DNA of 62,795 nucleotides, filler included, from Parachlamydiales bacterium (GCA_020051075.1; 4 parts of 4 records of this genome joined end to end with filler, not necessarily neighbours in it); one strand, 5' to 3'; counted from the whole stretch's first letter, positions 6,214 to 62,702 are shown. The notes: a model not told the origin generated them from the sequence alone. Numbers and translations are program-made.

Positions 6214-6252
6214 CTTTTTTTAACGCAAAGAAGCAAAGAAGGCGCAAAGAGG
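6214..6252. repeat. Solitary (T)nAACGCAAAG-family tandem arm
   Basis: TTTTTTAACGCAAAGAAGCAAAGAAGGCGCAAAGAGG; relatives at 18411, 27852, 28481 (rc), 36134, 42105. Confidence 0.6.
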
Positions 6253-6294
6253 ATTGAAGGGAAAAAGATTGAGGTAATCGTCAGGACCGTCAGC

Positions 6295-6434
6295 ATCCCG
6301 CCTATCTTTCCTATCTTCCTCATCCAGTCAATTTGACAGGATGGGAAGGATAGGGATGATGGAAGAGAAATAGTGCTGGACAGTATCGCTTTTTGATATG
6401 AGAAAGAACATCGCTTGAAGATTCCAAACGCTTC
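6295..6434. repeat. Composite unit A: CAGGAT-family hairpin + linker + degenerate REP tail
   Basis: Pyrimidine arm-GTCAATTTGAC-purine arm, then TTTTGATATGAGA...TCGCTTG...TCCAAACGCTTC; diverged direct copy at 6788-6916. Confidence 0.7.
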
Positions 6435-6454
6435 TCCAATATTCTCGATGGCTT

Positions 6455-6692
6455 CGCGAAGCGTTTGGAGTGCGGAAGTCCTCTTCCGCTTTATTCTAGA
6501 TCAATTTCTGTGTCATTCGTTTCTCAAGAATTACTCTATCGCTTCGCGCAGCGCTCGCTGCCCCAGCTATTCTCCCGAGCTTACCAAACTCTCGTGCTTC
6601 GCCTAAAACTAACTCTCATCTTCTCACACGCACTTGTCAAGGCTGTTCGTCGATAAAGCGGAAGAGGACTTCCGCACTCCAAACGCTTCGCG
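6455..6692. mobile_element. Complete REPIN-like element: perfect 40-bp inverted REPs around a 158-bp cargo
   Basis: CGCGAAGCGTTTGGAGTGCGGAAGTCCTCTTCCGCTTTAT at 6455-6494 and exact reverse complement at 6653-6692; GGAG tetranucleotide + GCGGAAG/CTTCCGC hairpin. Confidence 0.88.
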
Positions 6693-6787
6693 CTGAAAAA
6701 ATGGGGAATGGTGCGGCCGTCAGACCTGGGAACAGATTTCCCCCTTCATTGAGCCCCGAAAGGGCGATATAATCATTTGATGTTGTT

Positions 6788-6916
6788 ATCCTGCCCTATC
6801 CTCCCCATCCTGTTAATTTTTCAGGATGGGAAGAATGGTTGGGAAATGGCTTTAGGCAGTGTTAATTTTTGATATGAGAGGCGAAGTCGCTTGGGGGCTC
6901 CGAACGCGCTTCGCGT
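6788..6916. repeat. Composite unit B: CAGGAT-family hairpin + linker + degenerate REP tail
   Basis: Aligns in direct orientation with 6295-6434; ends CTCCGAACGCGCTTCGCGTA. Confidence 0.7.
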
Positions 6917-6939
6917 AGCAAAAATTAAATCTAGCTTCC

Positions 6940-58565: not shown

Positions 58566-58617
58566 CTGAAAAAAATGGGTAATGGTAAGGCCTGACGGCA
58601 CTACGCGCCTTAGCAAA

Positions 58618-60069
58618 TTAGCTCCTTACTCCCTTTTTGATTCGCTCCCCAATATCCTTGTCTATGTTGTGCCAGTACTCGAACGCTCGCTCCAGAACCG
58701 GCTCTGACACCCCATTTTTAAGATGTCCGACAACATTTGAGACAAGCCGGTCACGCTGTGCATCATCCATGACTTTGCGCACGAGGTTGCCTGGTTGACT
58801 CCAGTCGTCATCGTCTTTTCGTTTAGAATAGGCAGCATGCACGAACTCACCACTTGCATTCCACACTTCTACCTGGGGATAGCGTTGGCCGTCGGCTTTG
58901 GGCCCTCCCTTTGAATTCGGAGCATATACCGGATCGGAAACATTCTGGGTCCGCATCGCCCCATCCTTACTATAGCTGTGGAAGGGACACTTTGGCTGGT
59001 TGACTGGTATCTGCTTGTAGTTTACTCCCAGACGAGCGCGATGGGCATCCGCATAGGAGAAGAGGCGGGCGAGGAGCATCTTGTCCGGGCTGGGACCTAT
59101 CCCGGGGACCATGTTGTTCGGCTCGAATGCTGCCTGCTCAATCTCAGTGTGGAAATCAGTGGGGTTGCGGTCAAGCTTCAGCCGGCCAACCTCGTGCAGC
59201 GGGTAGTCACTATGAGGCCAGACCTTAGTCAGATCGAACGGGTTCAGCCGGTATGTTGCCGCCTCCTCAAAAGGCATAATCTGCACCTTCAGAGTCCAGC
59301 TAGGATAATCCCCCCTTTTGATCGCATCGAATAGGTCGCGACGATGAAAGTCTCCGTCAACACCGGCTAAACGGTCGGCTTCTTCCTGGGTAAGAAAATC
59401 AACCCCTTGGTCCGTCTTAAAATGATACTTTACAAAAAATCGCTCTCCTTTTGCATTCACCCACATATAGGCATGGCTTGAATAGCCGTTCATATTCCGC
59501 CATGTCTTAGGAATCCCACGGTCCCCCATCAACACTGTCACTTGGTGTGCAGATTCAGGTGAAAGCGTCCAAAAATCCCATTGCATGTCATGATCGCGCA
59601 GTCCACTGTCTGCACGGCGTTTTTGAGAGCGGATGAAATGCTGGAACTTCATTGGGTCGCGAACGAAAAATACTGGAGTGTTGTTTCCAACCATATCGTA
59701 GATGCCTTCGCTTGTATAGAACTTCAAAGCAAAACCACGCGGATCGCGCCAGGTATCAGGGCTCCCCTGTTCTCCTGCTACTGTAGAGAATCGAATCAAC
59801 GTGTCAGTTTTCGTACCGGGTTGAAATACTGCCGCCTTAGTATAGGCACTGACGTCTTTAGTAACCTCGAAGTGGCCGAAAGCTCCGGATCCTTTTGCGT
59901 GTGGTTGACGTTCGGGAATTTTCTCTCGATTAAAATTAGCCATCTGCTCGATGAGGTAGCTGTCTTGCAGTAAGATGGGCCCGTCGGGTCCGACTGTTAG
60001 AGAGTACTCGTCACTAGATACGGGAATCCCTGCATCGTTTGTAGTGGGTTCTGGGTGGTCTTCTTTCAT
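58618..60069 (-). CDS. Monofunctional small-subunit heme catalase
   Basis: [32 protein letters not shown] and RLFSYADAH motifs. Confidence 0.96.
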
Positions 60070-60089
60070 ATGCAATCTCCTTTAGTTGT

Positions 60090-60911
60090 TTACTTGTAAG
60101 ACAGAGTCTCCAAACGGAATGAGGTAAAATCTGGTTCGAGTCTACTCTTTACATCTTCGTTATCTGATATCGAATAATGATGAAAAAAGTCTACATCAAT
60201 GATGAAATCAGCATTTTTTCTTGTTGGATAAACATGAAAGGCAAAATCTTTGACAATTTCCATCATATGATTAAAAAAGAATTCTGGAGAACGGGGTGAA
60301 GATTTCTTTAATTCCCTTTGCCATTTCCAGTCATAAATATTCTCCAAAGAAGTTTCGAGATATATTGCTAAATCCGCATATTGTAATAAATCCATGGGAG
60401 GAAAATCACCAAGGGCATAGAGACCTTCAAATAGAATACAGTCAACATTTGCTAGTTGAAGTATTTTTTGCCCCCTCTCTGTAGTCAGCTGATTGAAGGT
60501 TGGGATAATGATTTCATTTTCACCTTCACAAATGCTTGTCAAGGTGTTATGAAGTTTATTCCATTGAATTCTTCTGGGATCTAACTCACTCGCAAATTGC
60601 TTTCTTTCATTGAGACTGAGTCCATAATGGTCTAGACTAATGATAGCAGAAGCAACGCCTAGTTCAGACAGTTCGGCTTGTAATAATTGCGAAATTGTAC
60701 TCTTGCCTACACCTGGACATCCTCCAATAGCAATCATTAGAGGCGCGCTTTCATGCGCATGCAAATCAGCTTTCTTTTTGACTTTGTCTTGAATTTCTTC
60801 AAGAATTAATCTGAGTTCTTCTTTTACAGAATTTTGGGTCCATCCACCACAAGGGATTACACAAAAAACTAACAAGACTAACACTACAGTTGTGTAGTTA
60901 TATTTTTTCAT
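60090..60911 (-). CDS. Uridine kinase/PRK-like P-loop kinase with N-terminal signal
   Basis: IAIGGCPGVGKST, ISLDHY, ILFEGLYAL, VYPTRKNADFII. Confidence 0.8.
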   Translation of the reverse strand: MKKYNYTTVVLVLLVFCVIPCGGWTQNSVKEELRLILEEIQDKVKKKADLHAHESAPLMIAIGGCPGVGKSTISQLLQAELSELGVASAIISLDHYGLSLNERKQFASELDPRRIQWNKLHNTLTSICEGENEIIIPTFNQLTTERGQKILQLANVDCILFEGLYALGDFPPMDLLQYADLAIYLETSLENIYDWKWQRELKKSSPRSPEFFFNHMMEIVKDFAFHVYPTRKNADFIIDVDFFHHYSISDNEDVKSRLEPDFTSFRLETLSYK

Positions 60912-61283
60912 TTATTTCTCCAATAATATCTAATTTCAATCATCCAATTAAAGACATTGCCTGTCATGGAGGTTACTCAAATTTACCAAAAAAATTCAAT
61001 GGTTTTACTCAAAATTGGCGTTGTTGCATAAATCGAAAAGAAACTTATTTATTTATCTTTTAGGTCAATCTATCATACTTTCTATCTATGACGGTATTTG
61101 TCATTCTGAAAAAAAGCTCCCAACTTTTGATGGCGGACTTGTCCCAGACAATTTTGTCCCTGTACTTCAGATTTGATAGTCTGGAACGTTCTCCATCTTT
61201 TTTCCTAAATCAATATCTTTAAATGACGAGATGAGTTATACTTTCATTTTTTACACACTCTAACTATAATTTATCAGGAAATA

Positions 61284-62570
61284 ATGTCATTCAAAAATTT
61301 TGGTCTGCAAGAAGAACTCCTTCAAGCTATAGATGAAAAAGGTTATACGGAAGCTACCTCTATTCAAAAACAAGCTATTCCACTCATTCTGAAGGGAGGC
61401 GATATCTTGGCTAGTGCCCAAACAGGCACTGGAAAAACAGCCGGCTTCACATTGCCTCTTCTTCAACTTTTAATGTCGAACCGAAAACATCAACAAAACC
61501 GCACAGTACGCGCCCTCATTTTAACTCCGACGCGCGAACTCGCTGCACAAGTTGCCGATAGTGTGACAACTTATGGAAAACACCTGCCGTTCAAAGCTCA
61601 AGTCGTTTTTGGTGGTGTGAACATCAATACGCAAATTAAGAAGTTGCAGAGCGGCGCAGATATCATTATTGCCACTCCTGGAAGACTCTTAGACCTCGTT
61701 TCGCAAAAAATCATCGATCTTTCCCATGTCGAAATCCTCGTCCTTGATGAAGCAGATCGGATGTTGGATATGGGTTTTATTCATGATATTCGGAGGATTA
61801 TTGCTCTCTTGCCAAAAAATCGACAAAACCTTTTGTTTTCTGCAACCTTCTCAGACGAGATTAAAATTCTTGCTCATAGTTTTCTAAAATCGCCCCAAAT
61901 CATTGAAGCAGCGGTCCGTAATACGCCAACCGAGTTAGTCTCACAGGTGGTTTATCCTGTCGACAATGAACACAAACGCAAACTTCTCTCCTTTTTAATC
62001 TCCTCGCAAAATTGGAAACAAGTTCTTGTGTTTACTCGCACTAAACATGGCGCGAATCGACTTTCAAAGCAATTAACTCTCGATGGCATAACTGCAGAGG
62101 CGATTCATGGAAATAAAAGTCAGTCTGCCCGAACAAAAGCGCTGCATGATTTTAAGAAAGGTTCATTACGTGTCCTCGTTGCCACAGACATTGCAGCACG
62201 GGGACTCGATATCGATCAGCTTCCCCATGTCGTTAATTTCGAACTTCCAAACGTTCCTGAAGATTACGTACACCGCATCGGACGTACTGGACGTGCAGGC
62301 AATGAAGGCTGTGCTTATTCGCTTGTCTGCATTGATGAACACAAATTGCTTGCAGACATCGAGCGTCTATTAAAGCGGAAAATCCCTAGTGTGGTTGAAC
62401 CAGGTTATGAACCAGACCCTTCTATCGCGGCTCAGCCTATTCCAAATGGGCGGAACAATCAGCCTAGAGCTCCAAGGAGTCATCCCCAGAGAAATCATTC
62501 CCCACAACTCAATAAAAGCAAACCCAAATATCCCACAACAGCATCCTCATCTACTCATTTCAAAAAGTAG
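61284..62570 (+). CDS. rhlE: DEAD-box RNA helicase RhlE-like
   Basis: [21 protein letters not shown] and HRIGRTGR motifs; GYEPDPSI tail. Confidence 0.93.
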
Positions 62571-62702
62571 AACTGCCTCAATGCCATTCCCTGTAAACAA
62601 GATGAACAGGATAAGTCAAAAGGGACAAAACAGGATAGGCAGGATCGCAAGCGGCAGGATGGACAGGATATTGAACAAGATGCTTTCATATCCTGTCCAT
62701 CC
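62571..62702. repeat. CAGGAT-family element with short right arm
   Basis: AACTGCCTCAATGCCATTCC leader; AACAAGATGAACAGGATAAGTCAAAAGGGACAAAACAGGATAGGCAGGATCGCAAGCGGCAGGATGGACAGGATA...TATCCTGTCCATCC. Confidence 0.85.

Follow-up and report, generated by a model that had tools for sequence, protein, structure and literature searches.

Bacterial MITEs (miniature inverted-repeat transposable elements) are short, non-autonomous, intergenic sequences that have inverted ends and show nesting. REPINs are hairpin-forming intergenic inverted doublets of REP (repetitive extragenic palindromic) sequences, present in hundreds of copies alongside one or a few cognate genes, those of the REP-associated tyrosine transposases (RAYTs), with one repeat per enzyme clade (PMC3116915). 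The 23S rRNA intervening sequences (IVSs) of Coxiella and Leptospira that bear an open reading frame (ORF) contain a four-helix S23p gene and show a patchy horizontal distribution and a decaying ORF (PMC4990558). The heptamers GGGAATC and GGGGA(C/T)T of Xanthomonas and Nostoc are intergenic and often form inverted pairs, with 70-75 cases in xanthomonads; the available part of that source treats them as quadruplex-forming simple repeats and names no mobile-element link or cognate gene (PMC4692102). Here we analyzed a 62,795-nt stretch of DNA from a Parachlamydiales bacterium (GCA_020051075.1), called the window, that comprises four contigs and the N linkers between them and comes from a 2.94-Mb genome bin of 133 contigs with 5.7% contamination. 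Its intergenic gaps contain hairpins whose arms are tandem arrays of short words, and the hairpins very probably originate from cassettes in which such arms enclose a gene for either a GxxExxY protein or a four-helix-bundle protein.

We lettered the families by their words as A (CAGGAT, with forms A1 and A2), B (ATGGAC), C (A(A/G)GGAC), D (CGTGCC), E (CACAGAG) and F (CGCAAAG). A1 is a long hairpin with the purine arm first and A2 is a short one with the pyrimidine arm first. Polarity is constant per family, the purine arm leading in A1, B, C, E and F and the CGTGCC arm in D. Like MITEs, the hairpins are short, non-autonomous, intergenic and nested, with inverted ends. Unlike MITEs, A1 has neither fixed terminal repeats nor target duplications, and the genome's true MITEs are distinct from the hairpins, only part of the A2 and CACAGAG arms being carried by them. 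The hairpins resemble REPINs in being inverted intergenic doublets with many copies and a clade-specific repeat, but their arms are tandem words with ragged ends rather than REP palindromes, the paired genes do not encode HUH transposases and lie inside the hairpin, and the distribution is independent of RAYTs and REPs. As in the 23S IVSs, a gene of the same four-helix family (TIGR02436) lies in the loop of a terminal complementary stem (contig C93). In contrast to the IVSs, the cassettes here lie between protein genes, have word-array arms, include a nuclease family with the same design and are outnumbered about 100:1 by gene-less copies. The intergenic, purine-skewed tandem units, often in inverted pairs, also recall the Xanthomonas and Nostoc heptamers, and both of those words were found beside four-helix genes (GGGAATC at locus L303 and GGGGACT at L301). 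Unlike the heptamers, the units here are 6-10 nt long and mostly lack regular G tracts, family D being a partial exception. Held against what defines REPINs, MITEs and IVSs, the element falls outside all three, yet it works like a blend of REPIN and IVS.

A reading made from the sequence alone (the sequence-only reading) had suggested that similar arrays flank GxxExxY and four-helix-bundle genes in other bacteria. Both gene types proved to lie inside such arms elsewhere in this genome. There is one full GxxExxY gene (contig C100; TIGR04256, 132.7 bits against a cut-off of 35), whose protein has its nearest named relatives in Parachlamydiaceae and other Chlamydiota; from these we take the host to be an environmental chlamydia. 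It sits between protein ORFs, inside CAGGAT arms that align with the A1 arms of the window, and when folded the cassette forms a single stem whose loop contains the gene (-254 kcal/mol, z -12.6). At C18:13858, a CACAGAG hairpin retains 20 codons that are 75% identical to the start of GxxExxY; it is a direct deletion intermediate. A second GxxExxY remnant adjoins an E-type arm at C101. We discarded a third, weak match at C1 because the surrounding sequence is unrelated. Two four-helix genes are present (C93 and C13; TIGR02436). The one at C93 lies inside CGTGCC-type arms, and this cassette is again placed between protein ORFs; the one at C13 has lost its arms and adjoins an ORF like that of an insertion sequence (IS). 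The four-helix protein matches 2gsc (XCC0516) with an E value of 4.9e-9, and its family is the IVS-encoded S23p family.

We then related words to protein clades. At 27 chlamydial GxxExxY loci the flanks contained CACAGAG, CGCAAAG, CAGGAT or AACGAT, with none of the four at a few loci. At L019 (G040:C2) the gene sits in a near-perfect inverted repeat of more than 150 nt without word units. A tree of 102 GxxExxY proteins over 120 columns (leaving out four with stops, three short ones, three fragments and one duplicate) placed the CAGGAT proteins in a 72-row clade that spans eight named phyla (Shimodaira-Hasegawa-like approximate likelihood ratio support 93), with AACGAT nested within it. CACAGAG and CGCAAAG fell mostly into sister clades (94 and 90), two CACAGAG rows lying in the CGCAAAG clade. 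With 84 rows labelled, 13 unlabelled and 5 one-sided, the words required 7 changes on the tree compared to at least 22 in 300 shuffles. The tree shows co-inheritance and not co-evolution because it has 120 columns, 80 loci in the set were fetched with the genome's own protein as query, and kin share labels. For an exact-word test we used 63 of these 80 loci, setting aside six with CACGGAT/CAGATG words as well as duplicates and loci that were broken, short or at an edge. CAGGAT lay upstream and its complement downstream of 53 of 61 CAGGAT-clade genes from eight phyla; in the controls this was so for 3 of 224 windows that had been shifted and for 0 of 18 E/F genes. The word is constant across phyla, down to about 50% protein identity. 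Gene-less CAGGAT pairs also occurred in all five non-chlamydial genomes picked for having the gene (16-98 matches; 0-2 in the reversed control).

The four-helix tree has 25 rows with words labelled by eye, the program having dropped L081. Support for the D clade was 96/96. Among longer proteins with a suffix, those with ATGGAC-type arms grouped as a B clade (90/72) and those with A(A/G)GGAC arms as a C clade (93/85), and in an acidobacterium (L318) a C-type gene again has C-type arms; L094 is unlabelled. Other four-helix clades in other phyla have other words, including those at L301 and L303. The description of the families as unrelated did not survive this analysis: three words belong to GxxExxY clades and two to sister clades of four-helix-suffix proteins, and L093 carries both suffix-clade words.

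In the window, all 21 coordinates cited by the sequence-only reading hold the words that it named, and the arm lengths and identities agree with it (for example 67 nt at 93%, 65 nt at 94% and 124 nt at 79%). Arm pairs do differ by whole units, as in the arms at 18467/18748, which differ by one 7-nt unit, and the variant pattern does recur between loci, the unit order at 18467 being found again at 27967. Several of the cited sites are single arms (6220, 18411, 27737, 27852, 27967, 28481, 36139 and 42105). Folded as DNA, elements of the window did better than 40 dinucleotide shuffles in 11 of 11 cases (z -2.8 to -19.1). Among the CAGGAT arms, those starting near 15435, 42767 and 62596 can be aligned to one another as well as to the GxxExxY cassette's own arms. 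Apparent perfect palindromes of 53-56 nt at 28175, 42212 and 58389 were rejected as N linkers between contigs. The features are as follows, with the strand where one was assigned.

875..1423, + strand: RAYT gene (NF047646, 88.6 bits against a cut-off of 80)
6219..6250, + strand: single arm of the CGCAAAG family (GxxExxY clade F); the word also flanks GxxExxY genes at L010, L020, L023 and L024
6290..6365: short CAGGAT A2 hairpin, fold z -4.6
6455..6692: REPIN-like doublet of the REP family, apart from the word families
6787..6915: CAGGAT A2 hairpin and composite flank ending REP-like
10533..10697: A2 composite at the folP/dacA junction, with the folP stop inside
11541..11703: ATGGAC hairpin of four-helix-suffix clade B, with folP and cydA diverging from it, arms 67 nt, 93%, in the folding test
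15411..15723: CAGGAT A1 hairpin between convergent genes, arms within 15432-15723, 124 nt, 79%, with a CGC-loop-GCG mini-hairpin in each, in the folding test
18409..18440, + strand: single arm of the CACAGAG family (GxxExxY clade E)
18467..18748: A(A/G)GGAC hairpin (four-helix-suffix clade C), core 18489-18719 of 65 nt, 94%, plus a 36-nt pair, in the folding test
22466..22522: short hairpin of the CAGGAT family, with clpB and a hypothetical gene converging on it, in the folding test
25486..25640: CAGGAT A2 hairpin and composite flank, in the folding test
27737..27772, + strand: single CAGGAT arm
27850..27863, + strand: one CGCAGAG unit, weak
27965..28041, + strand: single A(A/G)GGAC arm with the unit order of 18467
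28481..28503, - strand: single CGCAAAG/CGCAGAG arm
36137..36175, + strand: single CGCAAAG arm
36190..36256: CAGGAT A2 hairpin, in the folding test
38297..38362: CGTGCC hairpin (four-helix clade D), pyrimidine-type arm first, like the genome's own cassette, in the folding test
42104..42123, + strand: single CGCAAAG arm
42147..42211, + strand: MITE end (motif T5), then an A2 half; the contig end cuts the element
42760..43014: CAGGAT A1 hairpin, in the folding test
62596..62702: CAGGAT A1 with a full left arm and a short right arm, in the folding test

Directly upstream of the A2 element at 25486 is a short ORF-like stretch (25209-25490) that is below the ORF cut-off and that we take, by eye, to resemble ribosomal protein L28. 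Near a contig start there are a 32-nt tandem repeat (2.6 copies, 28345-28428) and a perfect 8-nt tandem (5.6 copies, 28441-28485). The gene for a YhcG/DUF1016 nuclease (46711-47749) has its nuclease domain cut short, and the domain apparently resumes in another frame.

A genome-wide census, which the sequence-only reading had proposed as a check, counted 577 arms of at least three units, together 22.6 kb, compared to 3 in an order-5 Markov simulation. These arms were CAGGAT (389), ATGGAC (67), A(A/G)GGAC (35), GGGCAC (43), CACAGAG (25) and CGCAAAG (18); the simulated ones were all CAGGAT, with 0 for each of the other five words. With looser patterns that include the REP family, and with no chance control, an arm was present in 528 of 1395 gaps of at least 60 nt. 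The commonest gap content was a lone A1 pair (111 gaps) or a lone B pair (31 gaps). Of 79 A1 loops, 45 fell into clusters that span contigs (24, 5, 5, 5, 2, 2 and 2 members) and 34 were singletons; by eye, about 10 of 26 ATGGAC pairs have one loop in common. The best match of an A1 arm is usually at another locus (0.83 compared to 0.78 for its partner), yet in 19 of 85 A1 elements the partner outranks every other arm. A genome-private 16-mer is common to both partners in 24 of 85 A1 elements, compared to 45 among 7140 pairs of arms that are not partners (0.6%); the fractions were 3 of 26 for B, 4 of 14 for D and 1 of 7 for C, versus 2-3% for non-partners. The mini-hairpin variant was equal in both arms of 69 of 85 A1 elements, where 41 were expected. 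The cross-locus matches and the partner-private variants therefore point to copying between loci and also from arm to arm, and it is highly likely that the gene-less forms were copied between loci.

Local slippage with inversion, or an assembly artefact, would suit the varying unit numbers and a contaminated bin of many contigs. Unit order and loops are common to different contigs, which supports the view of the sequence-only reading that the elements are copied; the same words recur in other genomes, and independent runs pile up the same arms at 5-20x single-copy depth. We give this explanation almost no credence.

A mini-hairpin is present in each A1 arm (263 anchors), with the loops TTC/GAA (155), AA/TT (87) and TGC/GCA (13), and its stem covaries in other genomes (CGC/GCG, CAC/GTG, CGT/ACG and CGCC/GGCG). 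GNA loops form very stable DNA mini-hairpins, and such stable loops hint at a single-stranded DNA substrate. The ends of A1 are ragged: the outermost 6 nt vary among 34 A elements and the commonest form occurs in 4. A test for target-site duplications gave 0 of 34 A elements and 2 of 6 D elements, with only 2 nt in D; one C element was scored and no B element was scorable.

We next considered whether the hairpins could be domesticated host signals, that is terminators, RNA-stabilising stems or nucleoid-protein sites at fixed places. Genes were called with a longest-ORF script (n = 2310 genome-wide), so the gap classes are approximate. Gaps occupied by A were co-directional in 87 cases, convergent in 75 and divergent in 38, against a background of 1414, 377 and 386, respectively, and this enrichment in convergent gaps is in keeping with host signals. 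So are the last codons and stop codons of three host ORFs, which come from element arms (at 10667, 15442 and 15713), and the gene context kept by 83% of the heptamer repeats in Xanthomonas (PMC4692102). Against this, the 38 A gaps are joined by 20 divergent B gaps (B occupies 17 co-directional and 3 convergent gaps), the transcribed strand shows no G-U excess (111 G-U versus 126 A-C in 39 co-directional elements), no Rfam match was found in the window, and copy number and sites vary among kin, as described below. Divergent gaps and the missing G-U excess bear out the earlier view that the copies are not simply terminators. We regard host signals as very unlikely.

No pair of word families was enriched in 1020 gaps of at least 150 nt, the only excess being C with REP (9 versus 3.0), and targeting of one word family by another is thus unsupported. 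Russian-doll nesting does occur (G000:C88:7663-8044; C18:13664-14100; C79:108032-108341), for example as a CACAGAG hairpin within CAGGAT arms within CGCAAAG arms.

A relative about 95% identical, present in runs X1 and X2 of one study, differs from this genome at some element sites. At the B element at 11541..11703 it carries 121 different letters where this genome has 216. It lacks 10533-10675 but keeps the element-type flank 10677-10697. Since the kept flank corresponds to flanks of elements at other loci, and since other chlamydiae have folP almost directly next to dacA with no element between them, this difference is probably a deletion; the joint 10532-10676 (X1, X2) was accordingly rejected as an empty site. 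At the GxxExxY cassette we found a 582-nt skip with only 23 letters on the short side, which may derive from any gene-less copy. A search for filled and empty sites within the genome with 152 elements returned five rows, every one nested in other word families, and scanning metagenomes with folP gave no match beyond 69% identity. On a single contig at depth 8, a 35-nt ATGGAC mini-hairpin replaces an A2; we did not rely on it. The gene for a short collagen-like protein (6940-7653) has diverged in the relative beyond the neighbouring genes (119 differences and 23 gaps over about 1235 letters).

Among 41 chlamydial genomes, A scored by a 15-mer ranged from 0 to 197 and was present in 21 of the 41, while the counts ranged from 0 to 158 for D and from 0 to 304 for B, the bins being incomplete. 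Arms and cognate gene went together for A (5/10 versus 4/31), B (8/11 versus 4/30) and D (6/9 versus 3/32), with Fisher p values of 0.025, 0.0006 and 0.001, although kin are not independent.

The arms could instead be passengers of DDE-type MITEs, of IS5-like derivatives or of REPINs moved by RAYT. Motif T5 bounds A2 arrays in six pairs, three of them with an 8-bp direct repeat, and motif T2, a MITE end that we take to resemble IS903, carries CACAGAG-like arms and has 9-bp repeats in both of its two pairs. The claim that target-site duplications are absent thus holds for A1 and fails for the MITE that carries some A2. Further points in keeping with passengers are an A2 composite inside a REP at C63:64151, a 9-mer common to the A1 mini-hairpin and the REP, and genome G035, where sequence was amplified with IS5-like sequence. 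On the other side, lone A1 or B pairs are the commonest gap pattern, A1 lacks fixed ends or duplications, and motif T1 is not the mover of the C arms because these lie outside it. No gene exceeded the cut-off for DDE_Tnp_1 or DDE_Tnp_1_5, the two profiles searched, and repeats often drop from such assemblies. The RAYT gene of the window is flanked by REP-type sequence and not by word arms. Its REP family has about 160 copies here and is also abundant in G009, G018 and G020. The word families are uncoupled from it: in G004, 24 A and 211 B matches occur with no match for RAYT or Y1, G018 combines a RAYT and 236 REPs with 0 A 15-mers, and G037 has 43 A and 0 REPs, though the bins may be incomplete. 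We do not favour RAYT as the mover, and we find it doubtful that the arms are passengers.

Several MITE-like families occur genome-wide (motifs T1-T5), and in the window they lie at 42147-42211 and 61017-61033. REP-like sequence is found in the window at 285-385, 1425-1460, 6455-6692 and 58529-58570.

The structural model of the GxxExxY protein (predicted local distance difference test score 92.6) gave SSO0001, presumably Cas4, as the best fold match (E 6.9e-5, template modelling score up to 0.57), with further matches to Cas4, lambda exonuclease, RecE and AddAB and a weak one to Hjc. D73, E83, K85 and Q97-Y101 are invariant in 56 rows, and we take the last of these (QxxxY) to be the RecB/Cas4 motif. 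With a profile score above cut-off, a catalytic-type D and ExK, and a nuclease fold in the model, GxxExxY (TIGR04256) is a predicted Cas4/RecB-like PD-(D/E)XK nuclease. No sequence relatives were found in the PDB. The cassette protein thus belongs to the PD-(D/E)XK family PF13366 / TIGR04256. The family is listed with function unknown and multiple transfers in a table row that names no flanking arms or mobile role (PMC3424549).

Taken together, we give an even chance to the overall reading that the hairpins are internally deleted cassette copies, spread in trans by the cassette protein without target duplication. Horizontal transfer would bring a cassette in, and internal deletions would then leave arm-only hairpins. 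The cassette protein would read its own word on a folded single strand and help to copy hairpins to intergenic sites, and fold-back synthesis would re-copy one arm from the other without any staggered cut. Insertion at gene ends would be softened by the purine arm's stop codons. The four-helix families may borrow GxxExxY or a host nuclease for cutting, and a family would decay to single arms once its gene is lost. That the cognate protein is the mover of its hairpins has, on the sequence evidence, at best an even chance.

Several observations weigh against this reading. From sequence we infer, rather than observe, word binding, strand cutting or escort, and fold-back arm re-copying by the cognate protein. 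Two unrelated folds with one design are poorly explained by a single protein-driven mechanism, and plain co-inheritance would also make words track clades. In many cassettes there is overlap between the innermost unit and the start codon. Only 1 of 105 purine-first A pairs holds a gene, and the cassette itself was thus not multiplied here. No clean empty site was found in the relative's reads, at the cassette locus or in the within-genome search. The co-occurrence of arms and genes is imperfect and its thresholds were set after the counts were seen: G020 has 44 A 15-mers and no A-clade gene was found, G006 has A-clade genes and 0 A 15-mers, and G018 and G021 have 63 and 158 D matches with no D-clade gene found. 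In this genome there are 189 B matches, and tblastn with suffix proteins found no convincing suffix gene; the TIGR04258 profile was unmatched even in controls. The assembly is without an intact cognate gene for four of the six words. Some A2 rides in a MITE, as described above. Of the 67 GxxExxY matches in G035, most are pieces that multiplied together with IS5-like sequence. Its loci L037-L076 are mostly internally deleted cassettes, some in tandem, with sharp cassette ends; we rejected G035 as a case of autonomous cassette spread because 40 stretches show IS5-like carriage and tandem duplication.

Some of these points fit better if the cassette origin is the same and the proteins are cargo, with host or borrowed machinery spreading the hairpins by RNase III excision followed by reverse transcription, template switching or recombination. 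This accounts for two unrelated cargo folds and for arm-bearing genomes without the gene. In keeping with it, the GxxExxY cassette can form one long stem that has the gene as its loop, and the genome has one reverse transcriptase (G000:C1:3639-4298, L320), presumably of the group II intron type by motif. The intervening sequences of the S23p family, to which the four-helix protein belongs, are excised by RNase III (PMC4990558). The lack of a G-U excess on the transcribed strand speaks against an RNA route, as do the 20 of 40 B-occupied gaps that are divergent, where read-through is less expected, and the constancy of the word down to about 50% protein identity across phyla is left unexplained. 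We consider the cargo explanation unlikely, though credible.

We searched the full-text literature, supplements and subscription journals lying outside the search, and found no description of this element class. The orphan protein families, the ORF-bearing intervening sequences, the inverted heptamer pairs and the REPINs were already known. This analysis adds a map of six word families to protein clades in one genome. It also documents a deletion intermediate, the copying of arms from one another and carriers that account for part of the picture. Because the genome contains six words alongside intact cassettes, the intermediate and hundreds of gene-less copies, it is a useful test case. Tentatively, the elements may form a separate class of transposase-free mobile DNA in which a loop-encoded protein reads the 6-9-letter word of the arms. 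Six orthogonal systems would then have filled one chromosome with gene-less copies through fold-back, leaving no target duplication, and this class would take in, as special cases, the Xanthomonas/Nostoc heptamers and rRNA intervening sequences; we hold this joint proposal to be possible rather than probable. Two large protein families without known function gain a candidate substrate, and the word can be read from the flanks of each clade. If true, inverted heptamers and ORF-bearing rRNA intervening sequences, both orphan repeats, would have a single origin, and it would become possible to test how intervening sequences function and spread, both described as unclear in PMC4990558.

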